A model generated the notes under the pieces. The model made no database searches, was not told the origin of the DNA, and saw only the letters and a list, made by a program, of their open reading frames with translations. This document shows positions 2,215 through 14,926 of a stretch of 64,000 bases of DNA, piece after piece. The DNA comes from a virus. Positions within the stretch are counted from its first letter, which is position 1, and the number at the start of each line of letters is the position of its first letter. The translations under genes and the position numbers were made by a program. The stretch lies in IMG/VR virus record IMGVR_UViG_3300035695_000003, positions 4,406 through 68,405 of that record; one strand, written 5' to 3'.

Positions 2215-2726
2215 CCTTCGCCTCCCTTGGGTTTGACCAGCACCGCCACGGTCTCCATCGTGTGCGAGACGCCCGGCGGAATCGGCGTCCCGTCGTCCAA
2301 CCAGTCCTTGACCTGCGCGCGCAAGGTCTGCGCGTTCACCGTCTCCTTGACCAGGCCCGCGTACCCATTGGCCTTGAGCCACGCGAACGTCTCGGGCTGC
2401 ACGTCCTTCTTGATGTGCGCCCAGATCTCCACTCGCAGGTGGACGCGGGCACCCGACGCGTGCGTGAAGCCGCCTCGCCCGTCCGGCCTGATCATGCCGA
2501 GCTCTTGCATCAGCACCGGCAGTTCCTTCTTTCGGATCTCGTCGCGCCGCGCGGTCGCGGCCTTCAGCGATTCGTCCAACGCCTCGACCTGCTCGCTCAC
2601 CTCGATGAACCTGTTCACCAGGGCCTCGAGCCGGTTCTCCGTCTCCGCGGACGCCTGCTCGGGCGCGACCTCGTTCGCGTCCAGCGCCGCGGCCACGTCG
2701 GCCGGGATCCGATCTCCTCCGTCCAT
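2211..2726 (-). CDS. phage protein with an N-terminal coiled coil (Gam/Gp157-like?)
   Basis: Start ATG 2726 preceded by AGAGGAGAGACG. Coiled-coil N-terminus (ENRLEALVNRFIEVSEQVEALDESLKAATARRDEIRKKE). Family assignment is a guess. Confidence 0.5.
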   Translation of the reverse strand: MDGGDRIPADVAAALDANEVAPEQASAETENRLEALVNRFIEVSEQVEALDESLKAATARRDEIRKKELPVLMQELGMIRPDGRGGFTHASGARVHLRVEIWAHIKKDVQPETFAWLKANGYAGLVKETVNAQTLRAQVKDWLDDGTPIPPGVSHTMETVAVLVKPKGGEG

Positions 2727-2870
2727 CGTCTCTCTCCTCTCTAAGAAGCCGAATATACTATCATGGACGCTTTCTGGCCAGCTTTCGTCGCTGAACGGCG
2801 ATCGCTCGAAAAGCGGCGCGCGTCTCCCGATCAAACCGGTCGACCTTCTTGCCCCGCGTTCGACCCTTCT
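2727..2870 (-). promoter_or_regulatory. AT-rich intergenic island with a sigma70-like -10 element for leftward transcription
   Basis: 144-nt gap. Minus strand reads ..CCATGATAGTATATTCGGCTTCTTAGAGAGGAGAGACGATG (TAGTATATT then SD then ATG). Confidence 0.3.
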
Positions 2871-3233
2871 TCACAGGACGTTCAGGTCGACCACGACCGG
2901 ATAGTATCGATGCTCGTGCCGATCCCACTTCAGGACCGTGAATCGACCGCGGTTGGCCTTCGCCGCCGCCGCGCAGGCGATGCCGATAGCCACGGGGTCG
3001 CCGGCGGCCAGGATGAAGTCCTGGTCGGCGTAATCGGCGAGCTTGCGCCGGAGCTCTCGGACCACCGCCGCCGCGTTCAGGACGTTCGTCTGCCGACCCG
3101 TCTCGAGCAGCTGCTCGAGCGTCCCGTAGGCCAGCGCCGAGCTCAGGTCGATGCTCTTGAGCGTGTTGTCGGGCGCCTTGTACCGTGGCTCCTGCACCAC
3201 GTACACGATCGGGCCCCGCTCTGTCGTCGTCAT
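2871..3233 (-). CDS. hypothetical protein
   Basis: 120 aa from MTTTERGPIVYVVQEP..; SD GGCGGAGACG upstream. Confidence 0.5.
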   Translation of the reverse strand: MTTTERGPIVYVVQEPRYKAPDNTLKSIDLSSALAYGTLEQLLETGRQTNVLNAAAVVRELRRKLADYADQDFILAAGDPVAIGIACAAAAKANRGRFTVLKWDRHEHRYYPVVVDLNVL

Positions 3234-3396
3234 CTCTTCGTCTCCGCCTTTCGGGCGATCGTCGGGCACCCGCGCCGATGCTCCAGCTGCCGGGCCCAGT
3301 CGTTTCCGCTTCGCATCTCGTACACCTTGGCCCCGCAGTCGCGGCACCAGTCCACGGGGCGCCAGTCGGCGTCGCCTTTCCGCGGCGCGTGGCTCG

Positions 3397-3579: not shown

Positions 3580-4031
3580 TGCAAGGCGTTGCCCGCCTTC
3601 GTCCAGAGCTGCTGCGCCAGGGTGAAGAGGATCGGCACCTGCAGCTCGTCCGCGACGTCGTGCCAGCTGATCTCGCGCCGGTACGGCTTGACCATCCACC
3701 CGAGCGCGTGGCCGCCCGCCTCCATCGGCAACGCGAACGCGCCGCCCACGAGCAGCACGGGCCACTTGACATTCGCCGCCTTCTCGATGCGGTCGAAGTG
3801 CGGGATCAGGTCGACCAGCCCGAGCTCCGGCTTCACCTCGACCAGCATCGCCGGCTGCCCGACGCGCATCAGCCCGAAGTCCGGGATCCATCCCTCGACG
3901 CCGACCTCGGGCTCATACTCCCAGCTGATCTTGCACAGGTCGAAGAACGCCGCCCAGCGGGCCTCGAGCCTGCTGCGGAAACGCACGCCGTGTGGGCCCA
4001 TCGTTTCAACGCCGTGTGGCATCAGATCCAT
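3567..4031 (-). CDS. PD-(D/E)XK-family nuclease
   Basis: ..RSRLEARWAAFFDLCKISWEYEPE..IPDFGLMRVGQPAMLVEVKPE.. (D..EVK motif). Only the last 154 aa of the 768-aa track ORF are protein-like. Confidence 0.6.
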   Translation of the reverse strand: MDLMPHGVETMGPHGVRFRSRLEARWAAFFDLCKISWEYEPEVGVEGWIPDFGLMRVGQPAMLVEVKPELGLVDLIPHFDRIEKAANVKWPVLLVGGAFALPMEAGGHALGWMVKPYRREISWHDVADELQVPILFTLAQQLWTKAGNALQWRP

Positions 4032-5986
4032 TCCTTCCAGGCATCGCCCGTCACCATGCGCGAGACGTCGCGCTTGCCGCGCAGGGCGCCGACGACGCGC
4101 TCGTCCACCGTGCCGCGGGCGATCACGTCCACGATGGCCACCGAATGCCGCTGCCGGACGCTCGACGCCCGGTCTTCCGACTGCAGCCTGCTCTCGAGAC
4201 TGAACCCGTTCGACACGTAGCAGATCGTGCGCGCCTGGTCCAGGTTGATGCCGAAGCCGCCCGTCTCGGTCTGTCCTACCAGAAACCGGACGCTCGAGTT
4301 CGGGTCTTGGAACGCCGTCCGCGCCGCGATCCGCCCGTGGTCGTCCACGCCGCCGTGAAACTCGACCACGGCGTCGGCGCCGTACTCGGCCCGCAGCGCG
4401 GTCGCGCAGGCCTCGATCTCTGGTCTGAACCGGCACCACACGATCATCTTGCCCTGCACGTCGCCCGCGAGCTCCATGACGGCGTCCACCTTCGGATTGC
4501 CGCCCGGGATCGGGCGCGCGATCGTCGGCGTGCCGTCGATCAGCTGCTCGGCCTCGGTCGTCTGCGCGGCCACGAAGCCGCCCGCGATCTGCGCGAGCCG
4601 GAGCATCTGGACGATCACGAGCTGAGCCGTGACCTTGCGCCCGTCCATCTCGGCCCGCATCTTCTGGACCATGTCGCGATAGATGCGCGTCTGCTCCGGC
4701 GTCATCTCGACGACGCGCTTCTGATACCCCTTCGGCGGCAGATCGAAGCACTCGTCGCGCGTGATCCTGAAGCTGTACGGGTCGATCAAGGCCTGGAGCT
4801 CGTCCAGGTGCTGATAGCCGAGCACCGCCTTGCCCTGGAACCCGCCCATCAGCGCGTACCGGTTGCGGAACGCGTAGAACGAGCCGAACCCGAGGATCTT
4901 CGGATCCAAGAACTCGAACTGCGAATACAGGTCCAGCGGGCCCTGCGTCGCCGGCGTGCCGGTCAAGATGCGCCGGATCTTGGCGTGGCGCCGGAGCGCC
5001 TGGGCCGCCTTCGTCCGCGCCGAACGCGGCGTCTTGATCCGCGTCGACTCGTCGATCGCCACGAACGTCGGCGCCCGCCGCACGAAGTCCATCGCGATCT
5101 TCGCACCGCGCGGCGTCGACAGCGCCTCGACGTTCATCACCAGCCAGCACATCTCGGTCTCGGAGCCTTCCAGCACGGCCGCGATCGCCTGCTCGTCTGC
5201 CTTGTTCGGCGACGACTGCCACGCCGCGGCCTTGTACGAGACGTAGTCCGGCATGTGCTCGGGCAACGCGTCCGTGACCCACTCGGTCTTGGTCGAGTTC
5301 GGCGCGATCACGAGCGCCTGCCGTACCTGACCGCGGATGTAGTTCCAGCACGCCGTGTCGATCGTCAGCTTCGTCTTCCCGGTCCGCTGCTCCGCGAACA
5401 CCGCGAACGCCGGCATGTCGCGACTGATCAGGAAGCAGCGCCGCTGCCAGTCGAACGGGGCCGGCCCGCCGTGCTTGTAGTCGTCCGGTCCGATCTTCGC
5501 GCGGAGCTCTTCCAGCGTCGCCTGCTTGTCGAGCGTCGCCTCCGTCCGCTCCGACTCGTGGGCGACGACCTCGTCGCGCCACGCCGCGGCCTGCGGGTCC
5601 CAGTCGGCCTGCGGGAACGCGGCGAGCAGGTACTGGACGTTGCGGCGCGTCGGCTTCGCGCGCCAGGCCTGGTCCGTCGTCGACCACGTCCGATAATCCG
5701 GGATGCGTCGGAGCCGCTCGAGATTCGACTGCGACCACGGGGTCTTGATCCGCAGCATGCCGCGGTGTGCGGTGATCGCGTAGCCCGTGGTCTTGGGCTC
5801 CGGGACGCCGGTCAGGTCGAAGCCGACCGCCCGCATGGCGTCCCACGTCTCTCGCGTCCAGGGCGCCTGCCACGTGCCCGTGCCGGCATCGAAGCGCCGG
5901 TTCGGCAACGAGCGCACCATGCGGAGCGATGCAGGCGTCGGCGCGAAGGTCATCACCAGCGTCTGATCTTTCAGTTCGATCTGCAT
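4022..5986 (-). CDS. SNF2/DEAD-like superfamily II helicase
   Basis: Start MQIELKDQ (TAATG overlap at 5986). Motif I FAEQRTGKT, motif II IDESTRIK (DExx), motif III ILTGTP, and C-terminal helicase motifs (QTETGGFGINL). Confidence 0.85.
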   Translation of the reverse strand: MQIELKDQTLVMTFAPTPASLRMVRSLPNRRFDAGTGTWQAPWTRETWDAMRAVGFDLTGVPEPKTTGYAITAHRGMLRIKTPWSQSNLERLRRIPDYRTWSTTDQAWRAKPTRRNVQYLLAAFPQADWDPQAAAWRDEVVAHESERTEATLDKQATLEELRAKIGPDDYKHGGPAPFDWQRRCFLISRDMPAFAVFAEQRTGKTKLTIDTACWNYIRGQVRQALVIAPNSTKTEWVTDALPEHMPDYVSYKAAAWQSSPNKADEQAIAAVLEGSETEMCWLVMNVEALSTPRGAKIAMDFVRRAPTFVAIDESTRIKTPRSARTKAAQALRRHAKIRRILTGTPATQGPLDLYSQFEFLDPKILGFGSFYAFRNRYALMGGFQGKAVLGYQHLDELQALIDPYSFRITRDECFDLPPKGYQKRVVEMTPEQTRIYRDMVQKMRAEMDGRKVTAQLVIVQMLRLAQIAGGFVAAQTTEAEQLIDGTPTIARPIPGGNPKVDAVMELAGDVQGKMIVWCRFRPEIEACATALRAEYGADAVVEFHGGVDDHGRIAARTAFQDPNSSVRFLVGQTETGGFGINLDQARTICYVSNGFSLESRLQSEDRASSVRQRHSVAIVDVIARGTVDERVVGALRGKRDVSRMVTGDAWKEWI

Positions 5987-6513
5987 TACAGGCCGATGCT
6001 CACCAGCGACACGAACGCCCGCGGCTTGGTCGGCGCGTCGAGCGCCGCCCCGAGCGCCAGCCGCGGCTCGATCTTGACCGGCAGCCCGAACACGCGGAAC
6101 AGCGTCAGTCCGCCCGACGACGCGTGCTTCGCCGCCGCGAGTGCCGAATCGTCGGCGGCCTTGAGATCGACGATCTCCTTGCGGAGCGTCGCGTTCTCCT
6201 TCTTCAGGTCCGAGATCTCGCCCGAGTCCGACGCCGCGGCCAGCTCGACCTTCGTGACGAGCGGCGCGCAGACCGGCGGGACGAGCTTCTCTGCCGCGCG
6301 AACGCCGGCCCACCGCGTCATGCGCACCGTGTCGGTCTTGGCAACGCGTCCGCCGAGGCTGTCCACCACGTGCTCGGCCGAGTCTGCCTCGGCCCTCAGT
6401 TCCTTGTTGGCGGCGAGCTCTGCGCGGACCGTCGGCCCCTTGACGAGACCGTCGACCGTCATGCCGGCGAAGAACGCCAGCACGACGACGATCAACCAAT
6501 AGCCGGCTTTCAT
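5986..6513 (-). CDS. membrane-anchored coiled-coil protein
   Basis: MKAGYWLIVVVLAFFAGMTV (TM) followed by a coiled coil (ISDLKKENATLRKEIVDLKAADD). ATGA coupling to the upstream gene. Confidence 0.55.
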   Translation of the reverse strand: MKAGYWLIVVVLAFFAGMTVDGLVKGPTVRAELAANKELRAEADSAEHVVDSLGGRVAKTDTVRMTRWAGVRAAEKLVPPVCAPLVTKVELAAASDSGEISDLKKENATLRKEIVDLKAADDSALAAAKHASSGGLTLFRVFGLPVKIEPRLALGAALDAPTKPRAFVSLVSIGL

Positions 6514-7853
6514 CGGGCCTCGATGAGCGGGAACGACCCGCCCCGCGCGATCTCGTCCACCGCGCCCAGGGTCGTCAGCGACGAGTCGCGGCCGAGCTCG
6601 GGCTTGTAGCTGCCCGCCCAGTAGGCCGCCTCGCGCTTCACGTCGCGGAGGTAGATCGGCACCTCGATGATCCGGCCGAGCTCCTCGTCGAACACTTCCA
6701 TGACCTGCGACGGCTCGTTGAAGGCCTTCATCTTGTTGAGCGCGAAGTCGTCGGTGCGCGTGAACGCGCCCGAGTGGATGGCCCGCGCGCCGTTGTCCGA
6801 GACGCCGACGTCCGTGTGAAAATGCCCGTACCAGAAGTAGTCGATCCGCTGGCCGGCCGTCGCCACCGCGGCCTGGACGCGCGCCTCGTGCTTCGCGAAG
6901 CCATACCAGGGAATGCTCCACGTGCCGACCACGTCGTCGCCGTGGTTGAGCGCGTTCACCCAGCCGCGGATGGACTGGTACGCCGAGTACGAGCGCGGCG
7001 CCAGCACCTGCACGCGGCCCTCTTCCTGATACTTCTTCAGCCGCATGCTGATCACCGTGGCGACCAGGAAGTCCAGGTTGTCGTGCGGGTCGCCGTAGTC
7101 CTTCTTCGTCGTCTGTCGCGGATGGTTGCCCGACAGGCACGTCACGATCACCTGCGGCACCACCTCCGCGAGCTGCGCGATCGCCTCGGCCTCGGCCTCG
7201 CCGATGGCGATGGCCGCGCGGATGTCGTTCCCGAAATGGTTCCGGTACTTCTGCCCGGGCAGATGCAGGTTGCCGTGCTGCGAGTCGCCCAGCTTCTGGA
7301 CCCAGAGCCGCTCGAAGCGGTAGCGCGGCAGATGCTGCCGGAGATACGCCGCCGTGACCTTGGCCCATCGTGCCAGCCGGATGCGGAACACGTCGAAGTT
7401 GTACCGCTCCAGCCCCCACGTGGCCTCGGCCGCGACGACCTCGTCCGCGTGCTCGTCCGTCAGGCTCACCGCGCCGTCGACCTCGAACTGGGCATTGGTC
7501 TGTTTCGGCAGATCGAGCGGGCGCGGATCCCACGGACGAATCTCGTCGCGGATCACCTCGGCAGCCTGCTCGACGATCGTCTTCTTGGCGTCCGCCTCGT
7601 CCAAGGCGGCGCGCAGGTCGCGCACCTGCTGGCGCGATTCCTTCAGCTGCCGCTCCGTGGACCTGAGGATCGGGTCGTCGGCCCGCACGGCCGGCTCGTG
7701 CTGCCCGTCGCCCAGCCTGCGGAGATGCTTGATGCCCTGGTCGTACGTGTTCTTCGAGATGCCGAGGTGATCGCGGATCACGTCGGCGGACTCGCCGCCT
7801 TCGCGCAGATCGCGCAGGCGGGCCAGGCGGTCGGGCGTCCAGACGAAGGGCAT
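6510..7853 (-). CDS. calcineurin-like metallophosphoesterase (SbcD/Mre11-like exonuclease)
   Basis: GDPHDN, TCLSGNHP, GHFHTD phosphoesterase motifs. N-terminal HTH-like region (GISKNTYDQGIKHLRRLG). Confidence 0.8.
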   Translation of the reverse strand: MPFVWTPDRLARLRDLREGGESADVIRDHLGISKNTYDQGIKHLRRLGDGQHEPAVRADDPILRSTERQLKESRQQVRDLRAALDEADAKKTIVEQAAEVIRDEIRPWDPRPLDLPKQTNAQFEVDGAVSLTDEHADEVVAAEATWGLERYNFDVFRIRLARWAKVTAAYLRQHLPRYRFERLWVQKLGDSQHGNLHLPGQKYRNHFGNDIRAAIAIGEAEAEAIAQLAEVVPQVIVTCLSGNHPRQTTKKDYGDPHDNLDFLVATVISMRLKKYQEEGRVQVLAPRSYSAYQSIRGWVNALNHGDDVVGTWSIPWYGFAKHEARVQAAVATAGQRIDYFWYGHFHTDVGVSDNGARAIHSGAFTRTDDFALNKMKAFNEPSQVMEVFDEELGRIIEVPIYLRDVKREAAYWAGSYKPELGRDSSLTTLGAVDEIARGGSFPLIEAR

Positions 7854-7857
7854 TTGA

Positions 7858-8340
7858 TCAGTCCTTGTAGAAGCGGAAGTATTCGCGGTCGATGTTGCCC
7901 GGGGGCACGACCTCGGTGCGCGTCGCGGCCCAGGCCGGCGCGGAGTCTTTCGGGACCATGGACGCGGGCGAATAGTACCACAGCGCGCCGAATCCCGGCG
8001 CGACAGCCAGGTATTCGCCCGACGACCAGACGTCGATGCAGCGCTGCACGTGCATCGGCTCCCAGAGCCCAGCCATCGCCTTGACCCAATAATCTTGCCG
8101 GCACACGGCGCTGAACTGGTTCTTCTGGAGCACGACCTCGACGGCCGTGCCCGGGAAGCGCGCGTCTGCCACCCGGTTCCTGATCACCTGACACACGGCC
8201 TTGATGGCCGGCACGATCATGTCCGCCGTGAACGTCCCCACGGGGGCGGGCGGGACCTCCGTCGCCGCCGTGCAGGCCACGACGTAGTCCGGCCCGTTGC
8301 AGTCGATCATGTCAAGTCTCCTCTCTTGGACGATCTTCAT
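7858..8340 (-). CDS. cell-wall hydrolase, SleB/CwlJ (Hydrolase_2) family; endolysin candidate
   Basis: MKIVQERR.. with ..VIRNRVADARFPGTAVEVVLQKNQFSAV.. (conserved QxNQFS core). The upstream 30 codons of the track ORF are the antisense of a tRNA. Confidence 0.65.
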   Translation of the reverse strand: MKIVQERRLDMIDCNGPDYVVACTAATEVPPAPVGTFTADMIVPAIKAVCQVIRNRVADARFPGTAVEVVLQKNQFSAVCRQDYWVKAMAGLWEPMHVQRCIDVWSSGEYLAVAPGFGALWYYSPASMVPKDSAPAWAATRTEVVPPGNIDREYFRFYKD

Positions 8341-8428
8341 GGCGCCGCCAGGATTCGAACCTGGGATGTTCACCACGTGGGTGGCGGTTTTACAGACCGC
8401 TGCCTTCAGCCTCTCAGACCACGTCGCC
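8340..8428 (-). tRNA. tRNA-Tyr (anticodon GUA), class II with a long variable arm
   Basis: Minus-strand sequence GGCGACG-UG-GUCU-GAGAGGCUGA-AGGC-A-GCGGU-CUGUAAA-ACCGC-CACCCACGUGGUGAACAUC-CCAGG-UUCGAAU-CCUGG-CGGCGCC-A. All four stems pair, with one A:G mismatch in the acceptor stem. Confidence 0.75.
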
Positions 8429-8445
8429 ATAGTCGTTGGTGACGG

Positions 8446-8691
8446 TCAAACAGACGGCATGTTCAGCTTGTCGTTCCCCACCGCCGTCACCCACATGCCG
8501 CCGACGAACGTCGCGAAGCCGGCGTCGAAGTTGTGCCGGATCGCCCAGTCGACGAAGATCTCGAGCGTCCCGAGCGCGGCCAGCGCGTAATGCGTGTCCA
8601 CCCAGAAGCTGGTCGCGAACCAGCCTTCGATCTTCGTCGCGACCTTCAGCGCGAGCGACGGGCGGGCGGGCACGGGCTGGATACCGCTCAT
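8446..8691 (-). CDS. hypothetical protein (lysis-cassette member?)
   Basis: 81 aa with an amphipathic/hydrophobic stretch (FATFVGGMWVTAVG). ATGA coupling to the upstream gene. Confidence 0.45.
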   Translation of the reverse strand: MSGIQPVPARPSLALKVATKIEGWFATSFWVDTHYALAALGTLEIFVDWAIRHNFDAGFATFVGGMWVTAVGNDKLNMPSV

Positions 8692-9017
8692 TGGCCGTCC
8701 ACGAAGTTGCGCCGTTCGCAGTCGTGCTTCTCCGCGGGCGTGTCCGCCACCAGGACGCAGGTCTGCTTCTTCATCTCGTGCCGGATGCCTTCCAGCTCTT
8801 TCAGCTGCAACGAGTCGCGGATCATCGTCGCGCGCTCGCGACCAGAGTCCGCGGACTCGTGGGCCTTCACGGCCTCGCGCGTCTCGGCCGCGTTGCTCGA
8901 CGCGTTGCCCGTGTTGTGCGCGATGGCCGCGACGCCGCCCGCGAGGGCGACGGCGAAGATCCCGACCGCGTATCCGACCGCCGTGGCGCCCTTGAGCGCC
9001 GCCCAGGCCCCCGGCAC
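8688..9017 (-). CDS. N-terminal TM plus coiled-coil protein (i-spanin/Rz-like architecture)
   Basis: AVGYAVGIFAVALAGGVAAIA (TM) followed by a charged coiled coil (RDSLQLKELEGIRHEMKKQ). Confidence 0.5.
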   Translation of the reverse strand: MPGAWAALKGATAVGYAVGIFAVALAGGVAAIAHNTGNASSNAAETREAVKAHESADSGRERATMIRDSLQLKELEGIRHEMKKQTCVLVADTPAEKHDCERRNFVDGQ

Positions 9018-9021
9018 GGGC

Positions 9022-9189
9022 TCACGCCTTCGGGGCGATGGACGTGATCTCCGCCTTCGCCTTGGCGCTGATCTTCAGCCAGAGCGACCGCAGGGTCACG
9101 TGGAGGAACGCGCCCGCCACGAGCGCCACGATCGTGTGGCCGGGGTTCGTGACGAAGCCGAGCAGAAAGCCGAAGAAGTCACCGATCAT
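9022..9189 (-). CDS. small two-helix membrane protein (holin-like); not in the ORF track (<60 aa)
   Basis: MIGDFFGFLLGFVTNPGHTIVALVAGAFLHVTLRSLWLKISAKAKAEITSIAPKA; basic C-terminal tail. Confidence 0.4.
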   Translation of the reverse strand: MIGDFFGFLLGFVTNPGHTIVALVAGAFLHVTLRSLWLKISAKAKAEITSIAPKA

Positions 9190-9230
9190 CGTCCAACTCC
9201 TTGAGAGGGGCCTTCATGGAGCTCGACAAT

Positions 9231-9824
9231 CTAGGCCTCGGCGCTGATCTGCGCCACCAGCCGGGGCAGCGTCCGCAGGCTCGCCCGCGTAGTCGTGCCC
9301 CGGAACAAGGACTTACGAAGCGCGTCCTGAGACGCCTTGAACGGCAGTTCCAGGAGCCCGTACTGGTTGAACGCCGCCAGCTCGAAGAGCCTGAGCAAGA
9401 ACCAGTCGTGCTCGACGCCGAGCAGGACGAACCCGCGTCCGCCGCTCGCCCGCCAGTCGATCAGCCAGCCGAGCTGGTCCGGCGTCAGCTCGATCGGGAT
9501 CTTCGTCTGGGGCCGCTTCGGCCAGGCCGGCACGTACTTGTGCTCGACCATGGCGACCTTGCCCTCGAAGCACGTGATGTCGTCCGGCGTGCCGCGGCCG
9601 GCGAAGCCTTCGGCCGGCAGCTTCCGGATGAAGGCGCGGTAGGTTTCTTTCCAGGCCCTGAGCACCGCGGCGCGGAAGGCCGCCTCGTCTTTCACCAGGG
9701 CCTCCAGCCTTTGATCCTGATCAGGGTCGGCCTCGTGTCCGAGAAGCACATCGCCTGGACCTCGTCCCAGCGAGCGATGTACCACGGATACCGACGTCCG
9801 CAGTGCGGGCAGGCGACGGTGCAC
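9231..9824 (-). CDS. hypothetical protein, possibly VRR-NUC/PD-(D/E)XK-like
   Basis: ..GTPDDITCFEGKVAMVEHKYVP.. (PD ... E-x-K spacing). The 5' third overlaps the deformylase 3' end (9692-9824), so the real start is probably internal. Confidence 0.35.
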   Translation of the reverse strand: MHRRLPALRTSVSVVHRSLGRGPGDVLLGHEADPDQDQRLEALVKDEAAFRAAVLRAWKETYRAFIRKLPAEGFAGRGTPDDITCFEGKVAMVEHKYVPAWPKRPQTKIPIELTPDQLGWLIDWRASGGRGFVLLGVEHDWFLLRLFELAAFNQYGLLELPFKASQDALRKSLFRGTTTRASLRTLPRLVAQISAEA

Positions 9825-10324
9825 TCGCCCGTCGTCGGATCTTTCTCAGCGCGGACGGGCTTGAACGGCGAGCCCCATTCGGTCGGGCCTATCCGCAGTC
9901 CGTGATCCGTGATCAGGACGCCGTCGAGATGATCGATCTCGTGCTGCGCGACCCGCGCCCGCATGCCGTTGAAGATGAATGGTTCGTCCGACTGCGAGTC
10001 CTTGACGACGATGCGCGTCGCGCGCCGAACGACGACGCTGACGCCCGGCAACGACAAGCAGCCTTCGAGTTGCGACCACGTCGACGTGCTGCGCTCGACA
10101 ATCACGGGGTTGACGAGCTTGATCCCCTGGACGTTGCAGACGCGCGCGTCGACGCCGATCTGCGGCGCGCTCAATCCCAGACCTAGGGCCGCGAAGCGCG
10201 TCCGTTCGAGTTCGTTGCTGATGTACCGCTCGGCGATCTCTTCGTCGAGCAGCACCCGCGCCTTCTTGCGAAGGTCCGGCGCGCCCTCGATCAGGACGAG
10301 CCTGAGCCCGTCGTCGTGCTTCAT
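9692..10324 (-). CDS. def: peptide deformylase with a C-terminal Cys-rich extension
   Basis: MKHDDGLRLV.., motif 1 GLSAPQIG, motif 2 EGCLSLPG, motif 3 HEIDHLDG; then ..GECTVACPHCGRR.. tail. Confidence 0.8.
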   Translation of the reverse strand: MKHDDGLRLVLIEGAPDLRKKARVLLDEEIAERYISNELERTRFAALGLGLSAPQIGVDARVCNVQGIKLVNPVIVERSTSTWSQLEGCLSLPGVSVVVRRATRIVVKDSQSDEPFIFNGMRARVAQHEIDHLDGVLITDHGLRIGPTEWGSPFKPVRAEKDPTTGECTVACPHCGRRYPWYIARWDEVQAMCFSDTRPTLIRIKGWRPW

Positions 10325-10611
10325 CGGCCCAGAGGCGGCGCCAGTCGGGTGCCGGGCGGCACGGCGAGGATCTTCGACTCGGGCGCGTCGTCGAGCGCGG
10401 TCTGGAAGAGCGCCACGATCCGGACGAGCTCGGCGCGACTGATCGGGTTCTGCGGCGTCTGAAGCACGAACAGCGTCACCGGAGGCGCGTTCGGATCTTG
10501 CACGACCGGCTTCGTCTCTGCCACGACGGCCAGCATGCCGCCCTGCGGGTTCTGCGGCGTCGGCTCGGAGAGCTCGACCCACCGCTTCTCGGAAAAGCTC
10601 TTCGTGGTCAT
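10321..10611 (-). CDS. hypothetical protein
   Basis: MTTKSFSEKRWVELSEPTPQN..; ATGA overlap with def. Confidence 0.5.
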   Translation of the reverse strand: MTTKSFSEKRWVELSEPTPQNPQGGMLAVVAETKPVVQDPNAPPVTLFVLQTPQNPISRAELVRIVALFQTALDDAPESKILAVPPGTRLAPPLGR

Positions 10612-11135
10612 GACTTCTCCTTCTTCGCGTAGAAGAGCGCGGCCGTCCCGGGCGACTTGGCCCGGTCGTCCACGAGGTTCCCGTGAGCGGTGGCGTCGGC
10701 GAGGATCGCCGCGCACGCGAGGATCGCGCCCAGGTTCGTGTTGCCTCTCTTGGAGTCGCGGTCGACGTCGTCGCCCGCCTCGTACGCCGCCACGTGGCGC
10801 TTGATCGCGGCGACGTAGACGCTGATCTTCACCGGCACGTCGCGGAAGTTGTACGCGCCGTACTTGTCCGCGCCTTCTTCCATCGTGTCGGCCGTCAACG
10901 CCGTAGCTGCCGGCGGCACGAGATGCAGCGCCAACTTCTTCGCGGCGGCCGCGGTCTTCGGATTGACTGCCGGCCGCTCAGGCGCGTTCTTGCCGTAACT
11001 GGCCCCGCATTTCGGACAGACCCAGAAGCCCTTGATCTTGTCGAGGATCGCCTCCTCGCATCCGAACTTGGTGCAGACGCTGGTCGGCGATAGGCCCTGG
11101 TCCTGATCCGTCGCGTAATTGGCGCGGGTCGTCAC
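10608..11135 (-). CDS. Zn-ribbon protein with a possible all-alpha NTP-pyrophosphohydrolase (MazG-like) domain
   Basis: GTG start in GTGA overlap. CTKFGCEE..CPKCG zinc ribbon; ..MEEGADKYGAYNFRD..NTNLGAILACAAILAD.. loosely resembles MazG/HisE-type EExxE helices. Confidence 0.4.
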   Translation of the reverse strand: MTTRANYATDQDQGLSPTSVCTKFGCEEAILDKIKGFWVCPKCGASYGKNAPERPAVNPKTAAAAKKLALHLVPPAATALTADTMEEGADKYGAYNFRDVPVKISVYVAAIKRHVAAYEAGDDVDRDSKRGNTNLGAILACAAILADATAHGNLVDDRAKSPGTAALFYAKKEKS

Positions 11136-11659
11136 GGCAACACCAGGGCCTTCACGACGTCGAGCCCCGACTGCAGGTCGCCCACGATGTAGCCCGCGAG
11201 CTGGTTCACCATCGCGTGGTGGTGCGGGTTCGTCTTGCCGAGCGCCACGACGTCCGTGGCGGCGTTCTTGACCGGCAGCGCCTGATACTCGACGCCGCCC
11301 TCCATGATCACGACGAGCGGCACGCGGAACGCGTCCGCCCATCCGATCTCGATCATGGACCCCACGGAGATGCGCTCGGCGCCGAGCAGGTTCATCAGCA
11401 CGACGTCGGCGCGACGCACGTCTTCCCGATCTCTGGTGCAGATGCCTTTCGGCGCGCTCAGGGGATGCACGCGCTGGTAGGCCTCGGGCGATCCGTCGAT
11501 CTTCTCCTCGCCTTTCAGGTACTGCTTCGCCCGCAGCGGGCTGAACCCGTCGATGTGCATCAGGTGCAGCGCGTACTTCGCCGCCTCGCGCCAGTCCGTC
11601 GCGCCGCCGTAGCTCAGGCCCGTGATCGGACCGGCAAGATAGACCCGGGGTCTGCTCAT
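11132..11659 (-). CDS. nucleoside 2-deoxyribosyltransferase-like protein
   Basis: N-terminal VYLAGPITG, ..ADVVLMNLLGAE..IEIGWADAFRVPLVVI.. typical of the Nuc_deoxyrib_tr/DNPH1-like fold. Confidence 0.55.
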   Translation of the reverse strand: MSRPRVYLAGPITGLSYGGATDWREAAKYALHLMHIDGFSPLRAKQYLKGEEKIDGSPEAYQRVHPLSAPKGICTRDREDVRRADVVLMNLLGAERISVGSMIEIGWADAFRVPLVVIMEGGVEYQALPVKNAATDVVALGKTNPHHHAMVNQLAGYIVGDLQSGLDVVKALVLP

Positions 11660-12168
11660 GCCGTCGTCTCTTTCGCCATGGCGTCCAGCACCGCCTGCGG
11701 CACCTTGCCGGGCTGCGCGGGCAGTGCCTTCGTCTTGCCCGTGGGCCTCGGCCTGAACAGCCGCGGGTCCTCGTGCCGTTGCATCAGCTGCTGTTGCGCG
11801 GCCGTCGCCTGGGCACGGGCGCGCTCGCGCCGGCTCATCGTGGCCTGGCGCACCTGCGCGTACAGCATCACCAGCTCTTGCGCCTGGAGCTGGGGATCGC
11901 CCGCCTCCGCGGCGACGGCCATGAGCTGCGCGATCCCGCCCACGCGGCGCTGGAGCGCGTCGCCCAGGCGCCCGCGCCGGCCCAGCACGTCGCCCAGCGT
12001 GCTCTGCAGCTTGGCGATCTCCATCGCCGCCGCCTGCGTCGCGACCTTGCTGACCACCAGCCCGTCCATGCCGCGCACGAGCCGGACGGCGAGGCCGAAG
12101 CGCAGCCGGCGCAGCGCCATCTTGACGCGCACGCCGAACGGCGGCCGCGGCATCGCGGGCATCGTCAC
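11656..12168 (-). CDS. hypothetical protein
   Basis: GTGA-coupled GTG start at 12168; moderate composition bias (A/R/Q-rich). Confidence 0.35.
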   Translation of the reverse strand: MTMPAMPRPPFGVRVKMALRRLRFGLAVRLVRGMDGLVVSKVATQAAAMEIAKLQSTLGDVLGRRGRLGDALQRRVGGIAQLMAVAAEAGDPQLQAQELVMLYAQVRQATMSRRERARAQATAAQQQLMQRHEDPRLFRPRPTGKTKALPAQPGKVPQAVLDAMAKETTA

Positions 12169-12380
12169 GGCGCCCGCGGGGCCCACGCCTCCGGCAGCCC
12201 CTCGGGTCTGAACTGGAGCCTGGAGATCTCCTCCGTCAGGAGCGTCGCCCGCTCCCCGTTCTTCCGCTCGACCAGCCAGCGCTTCGTCCATTCGCCCGTC
12301 TCCTTGGATTTCGTCTCGAACAAGAAGCAGCGCGGGACCTCTTCCCGCGCGCCGTTCGCGTACTCGACCAGGAAGGTCAC
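12165..12380 (-). CDS. hypothetical protein
   Basis: VTFLVEYANGAREEVPRCFLFETKSKETGEWTKRWLVERKNG..; GTGA overlap with the upstream gene. Confidence 0.45.
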   Translation of the reverse strand: MTFLVEYANGAREEVPRCFLFETKSKETGEWTKRWLVERKNGERATLLTEEISRLQFRPEGLPEAWAPRAP

Positions 12381-12589
12381 GCGGACCGCTTGCTGCCCGC
12401 GCTCGCCGCCCAGCCGCCGATCAGCAGCTCGAACCACAGCACCGCGCCCCAATGCGCGAGGTCCTGCGTCCAGCCCGCGTGGAACAGACAGTCAGCCGCC
12501 CAGATCGTCGCGAGCGGGCTCGCGAGCACCATCACCAGGGCCACGACGACGATCACCGCCGTGGTCGTGCAGCCGCCCAGCTTGCTCAT
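12377..12589 (-). CDS. small membrane protein
   Basis: MSKLGGCTTTAVIVVVALVMVLASPLATIW.. TM helix. Confidence 0.5.
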   Translation of the reverse strand: MSKLGGCTTTAVIVVVALVMVLASPLATIWAADCLFHAGWTQDLAHWGAVLWFELLIGGWAASAGSKRSA

Positions 12590-12837
12590 GACGTCCTCTT
12601 TGCTCGTTTGGGTTTGACCACGAGCTCGACGTCCCATGTCGCCCCGCAGCCGTTGGCGCATCGCCCGTCTTCCGTCGGCCGGTGGCCGAAGGTCCTGCAC
12701 CAGTTCTTCGCGAACTCCTCGCGCGCGACGGCGGTCGGACGACGATCGTCGCCCTTGCCCGCGCCGCGGACCTGTGCGTCGAGCGGCCGGTTCGACCGCC
12801 CCATGCTCTTGAAGTCGGCCTTCTCGTCGACCTGCAT
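12586..12837 (-). CDS. Cys-rich small protein
   Basis: ..NWCRTFGHRPTEDGRCANGCGATW.. Confidence 0.45.
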   Translation of the reverse strand: MQVDEKADFKSMGRSNRPLDAQVRGAGKGDDRRPTAVAREEFAKNWCRTFGHRPTEDGRCANGCGATWDVELVVKPKRAKRTS

Positions 12838-13262
12838 CAGCGACTGACCTTCCGCACGAGCGTCGACGTGAGCGTCGCCGTCGCGCCGGCTTTCAGCCCC
12901 CACTCAGCGAACGCCTCGAACACCGTGTTCAGCTGGATCGCGGCGCTCGACACCTCCACGGCGCGCGTTCGCGTTCCGAAGCTGAGCGTCTCTGTCTTCT
13001 CGGCCTTCACGACGGCCACGGGATCGAAGGGGCCGGGGACGAGCACGTCGACGATCTTGAGCAGGTGCCCGTCGATCTTGAGTCGGTCGCCGATCTTCGG
13101 CTCGCGCGGCGCCGGCGGCGTCTTCTTGGTCTGCTCCCATTCCCGACGACGCTGGATGTTGTCGATCTCTGACAACAGAGAATACGCGATCAGGGCGAGC
13201 TTCGCCTGCGTCTCGGCCTCGGTGATCGCCTGCCGCATCTCTTCCACGTTGATCTTCGACAT
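12837..13262 (-). CDS. hypothetical protein
   Basis: MSKINVEEMRQAITEAETQAKLALIAYS.. Confidence 0.5.
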   Translation of the reverse strand: MSKINVEEMRQAITEAETQAKLALIAYSLLSEIDNIQRRREWEQTKKTPPAPREPKIGDRLKIDGHLLKIVDVLVPGPFDPVAVVKAEKTETLSFGTRTRAVEVSSAAIQLNTVFEAFAEWGLKAGATATLTSTLVRKVSR

Positions 13263-13342
13263 GCTCGTTCCTTTCAGGTCAGAGTATTTGGCCACGTTCG
13301 AGACGAGACCCGAGAGCTGGCCGTATTCGCACCGCCAGCACA

Positions 13343-13660
13343 TCAGACGCCGCTGCCTTGCAGCCGCTCCGCGCGGTGCTGCTCCGCCGCCTCGTCGCCC
13401 AGGTTGATCCGGATGCGCTCCGTCTCCTCGTCGATCTCGGCCATCTCTTCGGGCGTCGGGTCCGGGCGCTTGTACGGCGGACGCTGCGCCACGGTGACCT
13501 CGGCGGTCGCTGCCGTCGCGCGGGTGATGTACGCCGCCGTCTCCCAGACCGCCAGCAGGCGGGCAAGGCCCGCGTCGTCCATGCGAACGACCACGTCGTC
13601 GAGCGCGTATTCCGCCGTCGCGACGTCGGGCTCGTCGATCAACACCTTCAGCTTGATCAT
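13343..13660 (-). CDS. hypothetical protein
   Basis: MIKLKVLIDEPDVATAEYALDDVVVRMDDAG.. Confidence 0.5.
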   Translation of the reverse strand: MIKLKVLIDEPDVATAEYALDDVVVRMDDAGLARLLAVWETAAYITRATAATAEVTVAQRPPYKRPDPTPEEMAEIDEETERIRINLGDEAAEQHRAERLQGSGV

Positions 13661-13971
13661 GCCAGGAGCTCCTTCATGAGGGCCGCGTGCATCTCGGCGA
13701 CGATGCCCGGGAGCGCGGTCGTGGTCTCGATATTCTTGCCGGTGGTCCACCACTTGCCTGCACGCGCGTTCTGCACGGACGGCACCGCCCCGACCTTGTC
13801 GCCCGTCACGAGCAGGTCCGCGATCAGCACCAGCGAGCCCTGCTCCATGTCGTAGTAGTACGTCCATCGGGGCACGCGGTTCAGGAGCGGCACCTGGTTC
13901 GCGTGCTGGACCATGTCCAGCGGCGTCGCGAACCGGTCCAGCACCGCCGCGAGCGTCTTGATGTCGGTCAC
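13657..13971 (-). CDS. hypothetical protein
   Basis: GTGA-coupled start; VTDIKTLAAVLDRFATPLDMVQHANQ.. Confidence 0.5.
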   Translation of the reverse strand: MTDIKTLAAVLDRFATPLDMVQHANQVPLLNRVPRWTYYYDMEQGSLVLIADLLVTGDKVGAVPSVQNARAGKWWTTGKNIETTTALPGIVAEMHAALMKELLA

Positions 13972-14153
13972 AGCTCGACCACCAGTTCGTCGTGAACCCG
14001 CACGAGGTTCGCGGCGGGATACGTCCTGCGCACCCAGTCCGCGATCCAGTCGGTCAGATCGCCACCGTATTCGGGATTGTCCATGACCGTCTTGTACTCT
14101 TCGATCTGCTGGGCAAGCGCGGCGCGAAACGCGACGAATTCTTCGTCGGTCAT
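13968..14153 (-). CDS. hypothetical protein
   Basis: MTDEEFVAFRAALAQQIEEYKTVMDNPEYGGDLTDW.. Confidence 0.5.
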   Translation of the reverse strand: MTDEEFVAFRAALAQQIEEYKTVMDNPEYGGDLTDWIADWVRRTYPAANLVRVHDELVVEL

Positions 14154-14344
14154 TGCGCACTCCAGTCGCAGGCCACCTTGTCGCCCGGACGCGTCGCGGG
14201 ACTCACGTACCTGCAGCGCTCGCCGTCGGTCGAGATGGCCGTGTAGGTCGTGTCCACGTGGACTTCGACCGTCACGTACTTCACGGTTGCCGGCGTCGAG
14301 CAGGCCGTGAGACCGGCAAGCGTCACGATCAGCAATCGCTTCAT
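14150..14344 (-). CDS. small lipoprotein
   Basis: MKRLLIVTLAGLTACSTPATV.. (signal peptide plus lipobox LAGLTAC). Confidence 0.5.
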   Translation of the reverse strand: MKRLLIVTLAGLTACSTPATVKYVTVEVHVDTTYTAISTDGERCRYVSPATRPGDKVACDWSAQ

Positions 14345-14346
14345 GG

Positions 14347-14835
14347 TCAATTCTCCTCTTTCACGAGTTGTTCGAACACCGCGTCGCCGTAGCCCGCCTC
14401 GCACCCCGCCTTCGCGGGGCCCCGACCGTACTCGCGCACGGCGGGGCCCCACACGGGGCAGACGGCGTGGAACTCCGCGAGGATCCTGACGCCGACGCAC
14501 GCCCCGCGGCGGAGGCCCGTCAGCGGTCCGTCGCCGCACTCGGCGACGAACGTCCCGTCCCAGTATTCAGGCCGCGCCTGCATGACGCCCAGCGCCCCGA
14601 CCGAGGACCGGGCCATCGTGTCCCCGGACCAGTCCTCCGCGTGGCTCACCGCCAGCGCGAGGTGGACCGGGACGCCGGCCTTGATCGCCTCTGCGCTGAC
14701 GGCCGAATCGCGGAGCTCGCTCATGCCGAGCGGCGCGACGCGCGCCGGGCCGGTCTTGATCGGCGCCAGCGACAACGCCGCCAGCACGGCCAGCGTGCTC
14801 ATCACCGCGTATGCCCATCGCCAGCCGCGCGTCAT
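14347..14835 (-). CDS. lytic transglycosylase (SLT domain) with signal peptide
   Basis: MTRGWRWAYAVMSTLAVLAALSLA.. signal; ..LALAVSHAEDWSGD..SSVGALGVMQ.. (SLT E-S ... GLMQ-type motifs). Confidence 0.7.
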   Translation of the reverse strand: MTRGWRWAYAVMSTLAVLAALSLAPIKTGPARVAPLGMSELRDSAVSAEAIKAGVPVHLALAVSHAEDWSGDTMARSSVGALGVMQARPEYWDGTFVAECGDGPLTGLRRGACVGVRILAEFHAVCPVWGPAVREYGRGPAKAGCEAGYGDAVFEQLVKEEN

Positions 14836-14926
14836 CCGATCTTCTTCTTGCCGTCGGTCGTAGATCACGAGTGGTCTCCGTCGGTCTGTCTGGGTTTCTG
14901 AGGCGCGCAATCTAACGCCTCGGGCG

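Follow-up and report, generated by a model that had tools for sequence, protein, structure and literature searches.

A divergent tRNA-Tyr gene at a mosaic joint within a probable lysis module of an uncultured phage

The window analysed here, a stretch of 64 kb considered in its entirety, comes from the genome of an uncultured phage that has a circular map of ~68.3 kb. Genes for three small membrane proteins of 55, 109 and 81 residues are followed on the minus strand by a tRNA-Tyr gene and a gene encoding a cell-wall hydrolase (Table 1). The three membrane-protein genes are tightly packed, with GC3 values of 0.93-0.96, and every adjacent gene pair on this strand shows either a 4-nt overlap or a 4-nt gap; the 81-aa gene and the hydrolase gene are separated by 135 nt, and the tRNA gene fills this spacer in the same orientation. 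The neighbouring genes comprise a nuclease-like gene on one side and an exonuclease/SNF2 helicase pair on the other, all within a long leftward arm of the genome. An earlier note on this DNA had placed these genes in the early arm, which agrees with the non-structural, replication and nucleotide-metabolism content that we observe. A site among DNA-metabolism genes is atypical for the late lysis cassettes of siphovirus- and myovirus-like phages.

Table 1. Features of the region in leftward order, followed by the gene pair at 14 kb. Coordinates refer to the window.
Feature	Coordinates	Strand	Basis or remarks
55-aa hydrophobic hairpin protein with basic C-terminal tail; holin/antiholin candidate	9022-9189	(-)	GC3 0.96; AAGGAG 7 nt before ATG
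109-aa type-II membrane protein with an N-terminal TMD, a helical periplasmic portion and conserved C87 and C100	8688-9017	(-)	TMD at residues ~10-35
81-aa membrane protein, 'GWFATSFWVD...GNDKVNMP' family; best holin candidate	8446-8691	(-)	Family alignment, AlphaFold
Spacer, pre-tRNA 5' leader, U at -1	8429-8445	(-)	17 nt, from 81-aa stop codon to tRNA +1
tRNA-Tyr(GUA), class II (long variable arm)	8340-8428	(-)	Rfam RF00005, ARAGORN
Spacer, tRNA 3' trailer and hydrolase 5' leader	8311-8339	(-)	29 nt; Shine-Dalgarno GAGAGGAG at 8318-8325
150-aa SleB/CwlJ-family (Hydrolase_2) endolysin, predicted lytic transglycosylase fold	7858-8310	(-)	Pfam, PHROG, PDB profiles, AlphaFold/Foldseek
64-aa lipoprotein with an LTAC lipobox, Ser at +2 and three additional Cys	14150-14344	(-)	Six-frame lipobox scan
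152-aa putative secreted/anchored protein	14347-14805	(-)	Earlier called SLT

The tRNA-Tyr(GUA) gene reported in the earlier note is accepted by both predictors. Rfam model RF00005 matches it over the full length of the model (1-71) with 43.2 bits (E=3.5e-7), above the gathering score of 29, and ARAGORN, which calls a tRNA-Tyr(GTA) at 8339-8429(-) with U(-1) paired to A73, finds it to be the sole tRNA within the window. All the marks of a bacterial-type tRNA-Tyr are present in the Rfam and ARAGORN alignments, namely the GUA anticodon, A73, G1-C72 and a long variable arm, which consists of a 4-bp stem and a 5-nt loop. The four arms are whole, the anticodon loop has the standard sequence CUGUAAA and the T-loop reads GTTCGAATC. 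Deviations comprise an acceptor-stem mismatch (A5:G68), a G rather than an A at position 14 and a 3' end at which CCA is not encoded. When the same Rfam model was applied to other sequences, cellular tRNA-Tyr genes scored 60.5 bits and two further tRNA-Tyr genes scored 49-55, the phage gene (43) being the lowest of those compared. The gene is real and intact-looking, yet divergent, and the combination of A5:G68, G14 and a low Rfam score suggests that its product could be poorly functional. When the tRNA was folded together with the flanking sequence, the minimum free energy structure was no more stable than those of shuffled sequences (z = -1.25). Exact-core searches revealed no near-identical copy in viral contigs or in 185,579 species genomes. 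A search of metagenomes with the 22-nt anticodon arm recovered 22 loci, mostly unrelated tRNA-Tyr genes identical at 56-67 of 89 positions, and no donor was found in the viral, genome and metagenome collections. An attP site or integration-site remnant was considered and rejected, since the tRNA is full length and no integrase family was found in the genome.

The hydrolase had been assigned to the SleB/CwlJ family, and this assignment is borne out by a match to PF07486 (47.8 bits against a gathering score of 27, E=2.4e-12), by matches to the PHROG endolysin families 14642/938/15649 and in part to TIGR02869, and by PDB profile matches to 4F55/4FET. The AlphaFold model (pLDDT 89, pTM 0.87) predicts a SleB-like fold, and the only significant PDB matches that Foldseek returned for it are the SleB structures 4FET (E=2e-4, TM 0.61/0.73) and 4F55. 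An N-terminal glutamate (E18, in the motif ATEVPP), which is invariant across 17 sequences, is the candidate catalytic residue, and the protein is predicted to be muralytic. The fold, the above-threshold Pfam match and the conserved N-terminal Glu are thus shared with SleB/CwlJ, but the phage protein is only ~21% identical to SleB and has a single domain, the PG-binding domain being absent. A tblastn search of 50,697 cultured-phage genomes with the hydrolase gave no match, which indicates a subfamily represented only in metagenomes.

In the earlier note the discriminator base of the tRNA was taken to be the A of the hydrolase ATG, a reading for which the start codon was wrongly chosen. The public gene call and the N-termini of all 47 homologues (116-162 aa, mostly 142-155) align to the ATG at 8310 (MIDCNGPDYVVAC...), 7 nt ahead of which lies the Shine-Dalgarno sequence GAGAGGAG. 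The ATG at 8340 is located within the tRNA acceptor arm, lacks a Shine-Dalgarno sequence and would be destroyed as a start by 3' maturation of the tRNA. Open reading frames of 190 aa (7858-8430) and 160 aa (from 8340) were both rejected as the hydrolase, as each overlaps the tRNA, has no Shine-Dalgarno sequence and conflicts with the homologues. Judged from these sequence features, translation begins at ATG 8310 and not at 8340, in which case tRNA-Tyr and the hydrolase reading frame do not overlap and are 29 nt apart.

The 81-aa protein, formerly listed as an unknown, proved to be a conserved membrane protein, for which three helices are predicted (13-27, 29-52 and 57-76; AlphaFold pLDDT 89), two of which are hydrophobic. 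The alignment of its family contains 12 members and has 61% column identity. Family members are encoded directly upstream of, or overlapping, endolysin genes of different types in related contigs: GH108 (Pfam 30 bits, phrog_315) in L008, phrog_2649 in L014-16 and DUF5675 in L010-13. A small TMD protein encoded next to an endolysin is what would be expected of a holin, and the 55-aa hairpin protein is also a candidate. Homologues of the latter (55/59 aa, 45-50% identity) occupy the same slot in L002/L006/L007; Kyte-Doolittle analysis gives one TMD in the 55-aa protein and two in its homologues. This protein, described earlier as two-helix and holin-like, is small and hydrophobic and matches no Pfam or PHROG entry. 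None of the three membrane proteins matched an annotated holin family in Pfam, PHROG, NCBIfam or BFVD, and a fold search of BFVD with the 81-aa model gave nothing significant. Like class II (two-TMD) holins and multi-membrane-protein lysis cassettes, the 81-aa family consists of small proteins that have two hydrophobic helices, are encoded close to or overlapping the endolysin gene and exchange endolysin partners freely; it differs in matching no annotated holin by sequence or fold and in being unusually well conserved. The 81-aa two-TMD protein, the 55-aa hairpin or both together most likely supply the holin function.

The 109-aa protein is 44-46% identical to 105/106-aa proteins of L002/L006, and L014 (102 aa), L010 (90), L019 (120) and L043 (114) each encode a protein of the same architecture ahead of their small membrane-protein gene. 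A full HMMER scan of 1.84 billion representative proteins found only three relatives, and a word-index search returned only the protein itself. With an N-terminal TMD and a helical periplasmic domain it has the topology of an i-spanin, so that the earlier label of i-spanin-like is apt in this respect, but a lipoprotein partner in, overlapping or adjoining the cassette is missing both here and in the relatives. Scanning every frame of this cassette and of eight related ones revealed no credible lipobox open reading frame for an o-spanin (relatives scanned: L002, L003, L005, L006, L008, L010, L014 and L015). We propose that the 109-aa protein is an accessory of the lysis module, to which we assign no specific role. 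A Gemmatimonadaceae MAG provides a weak hint of a Gram-negative host. If the host is Gram-negative, a module with no spanin pair would be incomplete by the canonical model.

The sole credible lipoprotein in the window is encoded ~5 kb from the cassette and is not part of it. Its signal peptide and lipobox (MKRLLIVTLAGLTAC) fit the pattern [LVI][ASTVI][GAS]C, and no family match was found in Pfam, PHROG or NCBIfam. This protein had been paired with a supposed SLT transglycosylase as a second wall-active pair. The lipoprotein half of the pair is sound, the lipobox being canonical, but the 152-aa protein bears only a loose motif resemblance to SLT: it has no match in Pfam, PHROG, NCBIfam or PDB sequences and does not resemble the genuine PF01464 proteins that the relatives encode (BLASTP versus the L002 SLT, E=33). 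The topology of the 109-aa protein, with its N-terminal TMD, helical periplasmic domain and two conserved Cys residues, and the small size of the lipoprotein, which has Ser at +2 and contains three additional Cys residues, would both be compatible with a split spanin system, in which the former is the i-spanin and the latter, 5 kb upstream, its outer-membrane partner. However, the genes of known spanin pairs are embedded, overlapping or adjacent, and a lipoprotein reading frame is absent from the vicinity of the cassette here and in the eight relatives scanned. Moreover, no lipobox is present in the reading frames around the L002 SLT gene, neither the SLT genes nor the cassettes of L002/L006 were found to have an equivalent of the lipoprotein nearby, and relatives without the lipoprotein still retain the 105-aa homologue or a protein analogous to it. 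We therefore consider a split system very unlikely.

Comparison with the closest relatives (L002/L006) revealed that DNA homology ends past codon 8 of the 81-aa gene and restarts at the hydrolase. In these relatives an unrelated 92-aa two-TMD gene adjoins the hydrolase with a gap of 21-23 nt, and beyond the first 8 codons no similarity was detected between this gene and the 81-aa gene. The alignments identify the 81-aa gene as a chimera, with codons 1-8 of the L002 type and the remainder from the GWFATSFWVD...GNDKVNMP family, and the spacer carrying tRNA-Tyr as a recombination joint, the body of the 92-aa gene having been swapped out from codon 9 onward. The tRNA is positioned where the replaced segment ends on the right. 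No tRNA is present at the hydrolase junction in ~15 related loci, tRNA-Tyr being unique to the present phage; the relatives bear single tRNAs (Pro, Met, Leu) at different positions. Only short chance matches were found as candidates for insertion-marking repeats flanking tRNA-Tyr. A blastn search with 7000-10000 against the 50,697 phage genomes gave no match, the terminase shares at most 30% identity with those of Streptomyces phages, a single weak match was obtained with the exonuclease, and no annotated close relative of the phage was found in searches of cultured-phage genomes.

The four-gene layout between Pep_deformylase and the SNF2 helicase is retained in L002, L006 and L007, with an analogous arrangement in L014-16. 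The order that recurs in related contigs is a ~55-aa protein, a ~105-aa protein with a TMD, a helical part and two Cys residues, a two-TMD protein of ~80-92 aa and an endolysin. In other relatives the small TMD gene and Hydrolase_2 directly follow the structural genes (the more distant L005 and L043) or lie ~3 kb past a giant gene encoding ~2,750 aa (L003/L004), and the pair is also found in L019. Holin-endolysin cassettes typically show such a swapping of unrelated endolysins behind one small membrane gene as is seen for the 81-aa family, which argues for a lysis module. No other muralytic Pfam domain was detected in the 92 remaining open reading frames of the window or in the 4.3 kb outside it. 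The proposal of a lysis-like cassette is thus upheld by the conservation of the module, by the coupling of small membrane genes to several endolysin families and by the presence of a sole recognised endolysin, and 7858-9189(-) probably constitutes a lysis module, the only one recognised in this phage, comprising three small membrane proteins, tRNA-Tyr and a SleB-fold endolysin.

It is highly unlikely that the module serves a purpose other than lysis, with the hydrolase expressed early for entry, superinfection or replication-linked envelope changes and the lysis genes unrecognised elsewhere. Its location amid replication and nucleotide-metabolism genes and the absence of canonical holin or spanin matches would be in keeping with such a role, but L005 and L043 carry the hydrolase and small TMD gene in the classical lysis position, the hydrolase of L003/L004 is found ~3 kb beyond the giant gene, and unrelated endolysin types are exchanged behind a single small membrane gene. 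Furthermore, no alternative endolysin was found among genes representing nearly the whole ~68.3-kb genome, and the T7 lysozyme (gp3.5) is likewise encoded among DNA-metabolism genes. The T7 enzyme, an amidase, doubles as a regulator of T7 RNA polymerase, and the holin and spanins of T7 are encoded elsewhere. T7 gene 3.5 and the present hydrolase gene both encode a wall hydrolase among nuclease/helicase genes, although the T7 case does not involve a tRNA.

Within the lysis module, the spacers flanking tRNA-Tyr are too short to accommodate a promoter of its own, which makes co-transcription and excision a reasonable expectation. A consensus scan of 5500-15500 detected no sigma-70-like promoter on the minus strand, although this consensus may not be that of the host; an internal promoter inside the 81-aa gene is possible. 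The nearest terminator-like site on this strand is at 12330-12350. Co-transcription and processing of tRNA-Tyr are plausible: the tRNA would be carried on a polycistronic leftward mRNA, host RNase P would release its 5' end (with U at -1) and the 3' end would be trimmed by a 3' endonuclease or exonuclease. Since CCA is not encoded, a host enzyme would add it, and the trimmed tRNA might then be charged by TyrRS. After excision the endolysin cistron would reside on a separate RNA, preceded by 29 nt of leader that includes a strong Shine-Dalgarno sequence. In every relative the holin-side and endolysin cistrons are translationally coupled or 21-23 nt apart. A functional punctuation, whereby excision serves to cut the endolysin cistron loose from those on the holin side and also yields a nuclease-resistant tRNA-Tyr, seems to us quite improbable. 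If true, the endolysin mRNA would gain its own stability and translation rate, and the timing of lysis would take input from the tRNA-processing capacity of the host or from defence directed at tRNA-Tyr.

With respect to the function of the tRNA itself, Tyr accounts for 2.36% of the codons in the left arm and 2.39% of those in the structural arm. To our knowledge bacteria have a single type of Tyr isoacceptor, and a phage tRNA-Tyr therefore cannot supply a reader of a 'rare' codon. On both grounds we rejected compensation for codon usage. Alternatively, the gene may be a neutral hitch-hiker or decaying pseudogene caught at the recombination joint, conferring no benefit and perhaps never aminoacylated. 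Its occurrence in one of ~15 related cassettes fits this idea, as do its Rfam score, the lowest of the tRNAs compared, the A5:G68 and G14 deviations and the lack of Tyr enrichment in late genes, while the single Pro, Met and Leu tRNAs elsewhere in relatives suggest casual gain and loss. On the other hand, the four arms, CUGUAAA loop, G1-C72, A73, T-loop and 4-bp variable stem are all intact, the Rfam score is comfortably above the gathering threshold, and the 29-nt trailer with its well-placed Shine-Dalgarno sequence gives the junction an adapted appearance. Neutral carriage is a possibility of some weight, albeit rather unlikely.

Another possibility, which we regard as unlikely, is that tRNA-Tyr is an anti-defence or supply device that replaces depleted or cleaved host tRNA-Tyr, its site in the lysis operon merely securing expression. 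The existence of one Tyr isoacceptor type, with codon-bias compensation ruled out as the reason for carriage, speaks for such a device, and a body identical at only 56-67 of 89 positions to cellular tRNA-Tyr sharing its anticodon arm is what might be seen in a nuclease-resistant variant. There is also a precedent in phage T5, whose tRNA-Tyr was shown experimentally to rescue infection from the tRNA-Tyr-degrading PtuAB nuclease of retron-Eco7 (PMC11555353). The T5 gene and the present one both encode a tRNA-Tyr(GUA) the value of which does not derive from codon bias. In contrast, the T5 gene is located in a tRNA-rich region and has a strong promoter, whereas here a single tRNA is present and no strong dedicated promoter or defence system was recognised; a tRNA-targeting defence system is not known for the host, and the anticodon loop is the standard CUGUAAA.

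The location of a tRNA in a lysis setting had been considered unusual, but comparable arrangements occur in mycobacteriophage L5, where tRNA-Gln precedes lysin A, and in Stx phage 933W, where tRNAs lie ahead of S/R. In L5, as in its cluster A relatives, tRNA genes 7-9 directly precede the lysin A, holin and lysin B genes in the same orientation within a tightly packed operon, as the tRNA precedes the endolysin in the present phage, and tRNA-Gln ends 30 nt before lysin A, compared with 29 nt between tRNA-Tyr and the endolysin here. The L5 cassette differs in having three tRNAs ahead of the entire cassette, with the holin after lysin A, rather than a single tRNA between holin-like and endolysin genes; it is also situated in the structural arm and not the replication arm, and employs a different endolysin family. 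The late region of 933W is arranged pR' - ileZ/argN/argO tRNAs - stx2AB - S - R, such that three tRNAs intervene between the late promoter and S/R. These tRNAs are ~4.5 kb upstream of S/R, have their own annotated promoter (pT) and serve rare codons, whereas the tRNA described here is inside the cassette and belongs to a single-isoacceptor family. Literature searches for a tRNA inside a lysis cassette gave nothing specific. The position of tRNA-Tyr is a minor variant of these known arrangements.

As a phenomenon, this position adds little, given that solitary phage tRNAs beside lysis genes and co-transcripts of tRNA and mRNA are already established. The locus does document a metagenome-only subfamily of SleB-fold endolysins, and, in a phage lineage without cultured relatives, a lysis module in which no spanin can be recognised. 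The GWFATSFWVD...GNDKVNMP family, which is unannotated, well conserved and consistently coupled to several endolysin families, is a candidate new holin family. Finally, a tRNA gene located exactly at a mosaic joint, in the context of a chimeric gene, provides a clean and datable case that bears on how phages gain tRNAs.

The window encodes a single tRNA, a tRNA-Tyr(GTA) that both ARAGORN and the Rfam tRNA model place amid the small genes of a leftward cassette, as an earlier note had proposed. The Rfam match covers the full model length at 43.2 bits (gathering score 29, E=3.5e-7), and the gene carries the marks of a bacterial-type tRNA-Tyr, namely G1-C72, A73, the sequence CUGUAAA in the anticodon loop and a long variable arm whose stem has 4 bp. 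Departures from the norm are the mismatched A5:G68 pair of the acceptor stem, a G at position 14 and the lack of an encoded CCA. With the same model cellular tRNA-Tyr genes score 60.5 bits, two other tRNA-Tyr genes 49-55 and the tRNA-Gln of phage L5 49. Because of these deviations and a score below those of the compared tRNA-Tyr genes, the gene is judged on sequence to be real-looking but divergent.

Features in and around the cassette (in leftward order from peptide deformylase to SNF2 helicase, gene models revised locally by GC3 frame analysis), followed by other features and by solitary tRNAs of related contigs
Feature	Coordinates	Strand	Match
Peptide deformylase	9692-10324	-	Pfam, E=1.3e-25
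Nuclease-like protein, 154 aa	9231-9695	-	phrog_2165/93
55-aa protein		-	
109-aa protein		-	
81-aa protein	8446-8691	-	GWFATSFWVD family
tRNA-Tyr	8339-8429 (ARAGORN); 8340-8428 (Rfam)	-	
Hydrolase	start 8310	-	PF07486
Exonuclease, 447 aa	leftward of hydrolase	-	phrog_284
TMD plus coiled-coil protein, 175 aa	5986-6513	-	
SNF2 helicase	4022-5986	-	
Three successive proteins	1336-3269	-	Pfam gp32-like, gp33-like DUF7307, gp34-like
Amidoligase_2, GATase_6, GGACT, two nucleoside 2-deoxyribosyltransferases	among 11132-11659, 18011-18490, 24227-25246, 25936-27090	-	
dATP/dGTP diphosphohydrolase-like protein	not mapped		
Terminator-like site	12330-12350	-	
Lipoprotein, 64 aa	14150-14344		
Protein first labelled SLT	14347-14805		
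tRNA-Pro, L003	7011-7085		
tRNA-Pro, L004	6935-7008		
tRNA-Met, L005	13650-13723		
tRNA-Met, L043	4265-4340		
tRNA-Leu, L008	1578-1649		

The ORF downstream of the tRNA encodes a Hydrolase_2 (SleB/CwlJ) protein (E=2.4e-12) with weak matches to PHROG endolysin families. Its family profile matches the SleB structures 4F55 and 4FET, and the only significant structural matches of its AlphaFold model (pLDDT 89, pTM 0.87) are SleB catalytic domains; all three agree with the family assigned earlier, and a muralytic role is predicted. The claim that the A of the hydrolase ATG doubles as the tRNA discriminator did not survive, as it rested on a start at 8340. That ATG lies within the tRNA acceptor arm, lacks a Shine-Dalgarno sequence and would lose its A when the tRNA 3' end matures. 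In the public gene call the identical protein is 150 aa long, all 47 homologues (47/47) align N-terminus to N-terminus with MIDCNGPDYVVAC, and GAGAGGAG is positioned 7 nt upstream of ATG 8310; these observations point to 8310 as the start. The tRNA and the hydrolase ORF are therefore separate, with 29 nt between A73 and the ATG and 17 nt from the 81-aa stop codon to tRNA +1. Adjacent genes otherwise overlap by 1-4 nt or leave a 4-nt gap, the one other exception being 41 nt before the 55-aa gene. This hydrolase subfamily has 47 metagenomic homologues, no match among 50,697 cultured-phage genomes, and matches in only two contigs among 185,579 species genomes, L019 (CAZFKN010000040.1) and L020 (CAZFKN010000097.1). 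Both are binned into an uncultured Gemmatimonadaceae MAG, a weak hint of a host or prophage; in L019 a TMD+helix+Cys gene, a two-TMD gene and the hydrolase adjoin a Cro/CI-like HTH gene.

The surroundings of the tRNA have a composite history. DNA homology with the close relatives L002 and L006 extends across the 109-aa gene and into the next one for 8 codons (MSGIQPVP), past which the sequence is unrelated up to the hydrolase start, while residues 9-81 show 59-70% identity to a family characterised by GWFATSFWVD. The 81-aa gene is thus a chimera, with codons 1-8 derived from another, unrelated gene, and the tRNA, located where the replaced segment ends on the right, is on this sequence comparison at a mosaic joint. 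In ~15 related cassettes the small membrane gene and the endolysin gene overlap or lie 21-23 nt apart, and in no case does a tRNA separate them. Solitary tRNAs occur elsewhere in related contigs, that of L043 131 nt past the gene following its hydrolase, and single tRNAs appear to be freely gained and lost in this phage supergroup. Exact-core searches of viral contigs and the 185,579 species genomes gave no donor, and metagenomic tRNA-Tyr genes with the same anticodon arm are identical at merely 56-67 of 89 positions. No insertion-marking repeats were found beside the tRNA. As the genome yielded no integrase, we reject an attP remnant as its origin.

Several lines of evidence argue for a lysis-type cassette, as first proposed, with its function predicted from gene layout. 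L002 and L006/L007 share the order Pep_deformylase, 151 aa, 55/59 aa, 105/106 aa, 92 aa, Hydrolase_2, 441-461-aa exonuclease, 174 aa, SNF2. In more distant phages a small two-TMD gene lies immediately 5' of the hydrolase, often overlapping it, and is usually preceded by a gene for a single-TMD helical protein. In L019 and L043 this protein has two Cys and an N-terminal TMD; its counterpart in L005 lacks Cys and has the TMD at the C-terminus, and that of L003/L004 has no TMD. The hydrolase group occupies the classical lysis position directly 3' of large structural genes in L005 and L043, and lies ~3 kb past a giant ~2,750-aa gene in L003/L004. The 81-aa protein, modelled as three helices of which two are hydrophobic, falls into a conserved family, GWFATSFWVD...GNDKVNMP (12 members of 67-81 aa, 61% column identity). 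Members precede and overlap a GH108 endolysin (Pfam 30 bits; phrog_315) in L008, a phrog_2649-type endolysin in L014-16 and a DUF5675 protein in L010-13. In the window, L008, L010-L016 and L045 the gene immediately downstream of the member is always of endolysin type, its family varying. Swapping of unrelated wall enzymes next to one and the same small membrane gene is the signature of holin-endolysin modules, and we read it as such here, making this unannotated family a candidate new holin family.

The 55-aa protein, a basic-tailed hydrophobic hairpin with homologues in L002/L006, can keep its holin-like label. The topology of the 109-aa protein, whose family is tiny (3 matches in 1.84 billion representative proteins), suits the i-spanin proposed for it, but the defining o-spanin partner is missing, since neither this cassette nor eight related ones contain, overlap or adjoin a lipobox ORF. 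A second wall-active pair had been suggested elsewhere in the early arm. Its lipoprotein, 5 kb from the cassette, stands (LTAC lipobox), with no equivalent seen near the SLT genes or cassettes of L002/L006; the SLT transglycosylase label could not be confirmed, as the 14347-14805 protein has no match in Pfam, PHROG, NCBIfam or PDB and no relationship to the true PF01464 proteins of those phages. The 175-aa protein combines an N-terminal TMD and a hydrophobic C-terminus with a long coiled coil, gave no family match and could act as an envelope- or spanin-like component. Its gene is start-coupled (ATGA) to the exonuclease gene and kept in L002/L006 (54-61% identity), and L043 has a 228-aa TMD plus coiled-coil analogue directly 3' of its hydrolase gene.

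A 68,308-bp Logan contig of identical sequence stops at position 9947, where the window itself is continuous, and the mapped gene ends fit a circle of ~68.28 kb; the window is thus the complete genome minus ~4.3 kb. Two arms diverge from ~28.4-28.9 kb and converge at ~58.4 kb, and the cassette lies in the non-structural arm, ~19 kb from either end of a ~38-kb leftward gene array. A Pfam scan of 92 other window ORFs found no further muralytic domain, and the remaining 4.3 kb holds methylase, PRA-PH, AAA_33, thymidylate-synthase-like and deoxyribosyltransferase genes; the cassette is therefore the sole lysis module recognisable by sequence in this phage, not an extra one. The deformylase just upstream is conserved in L002, L006, L014 and L003. 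The thymidylate-synthase-like and AAA_33 genes lie just beyond the window (L046 7370-9753), L002 has a 5-hmdU DNA kinase domain (HMUDK_hel), and the genes of the table from Amidoligase_2 to the diphosphohydrolase-like one, taken with these two, suggest DNA base hypermodification or nucleotide remodelling. The protein trio at the left, matching families named for cyanophage Pam3, is conserved in L002 and L008.

Comparable placements are known: mycobacteriophage L5 has three tRNAs, the last ending 30 nt before lysin A, and phage 933W has three that lie past the late promoter and ahead of the S/R lysis genes. T7 lysozyme is encoded among DNA-metabolism genes. Here, in contrast to L5 and 933W, one tRNA separates the endolysin gene from a holin-like gene; this is a known theme with a slight change in position. 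With ~100 genome junctions, the prior of one tRNA in any of the cassette's three internal junctions is a few percent, so the arrangement, a single observation, is mildly unusual.

The tRNA and cassette genes are tightly packed in the same orientation, and no sigma-70-like promoter was found on the minus strand at 5500-15500, where the terminator-like site of the table is the nearest. Bacterial tRNA maturation and tRNA-mRNA operons such as E. coli tyrU-tufB are established, and the leader base at -1 is usually U. By analogy, the tRNA would be transcribed within a polycistronic RNA, RNase P would free its 5' end (U at -1), a 3' nuclease would cleave past A73 and a host enzyme would add CCA. After this excision the endolysin cistron would sit on an RNA of its own, headed by a 29-nt leader with a strong Shine-Dalgarno sequence. 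Tyr codons are equally frequent in both arms (2.36% vs 2.39%), TAC being dominant (88% and 79%), and to our knowledge bacteria have one Tyr isoacceptor type, so compensation of codon bias does not apply. The tRNA may provide extra supply, replace host tRNA-Tyr attacked by a defence nuclease, or have no role; such replacement has been shown for T5 tRNA-Tyr against retron-Eco7 (PMC11555353).

We count among the most useful by-products of this analysis the chimeric mosaic joint, the lysis module of an uncultured lineage in which no spanin can be recognised, and the candidate new holin family.
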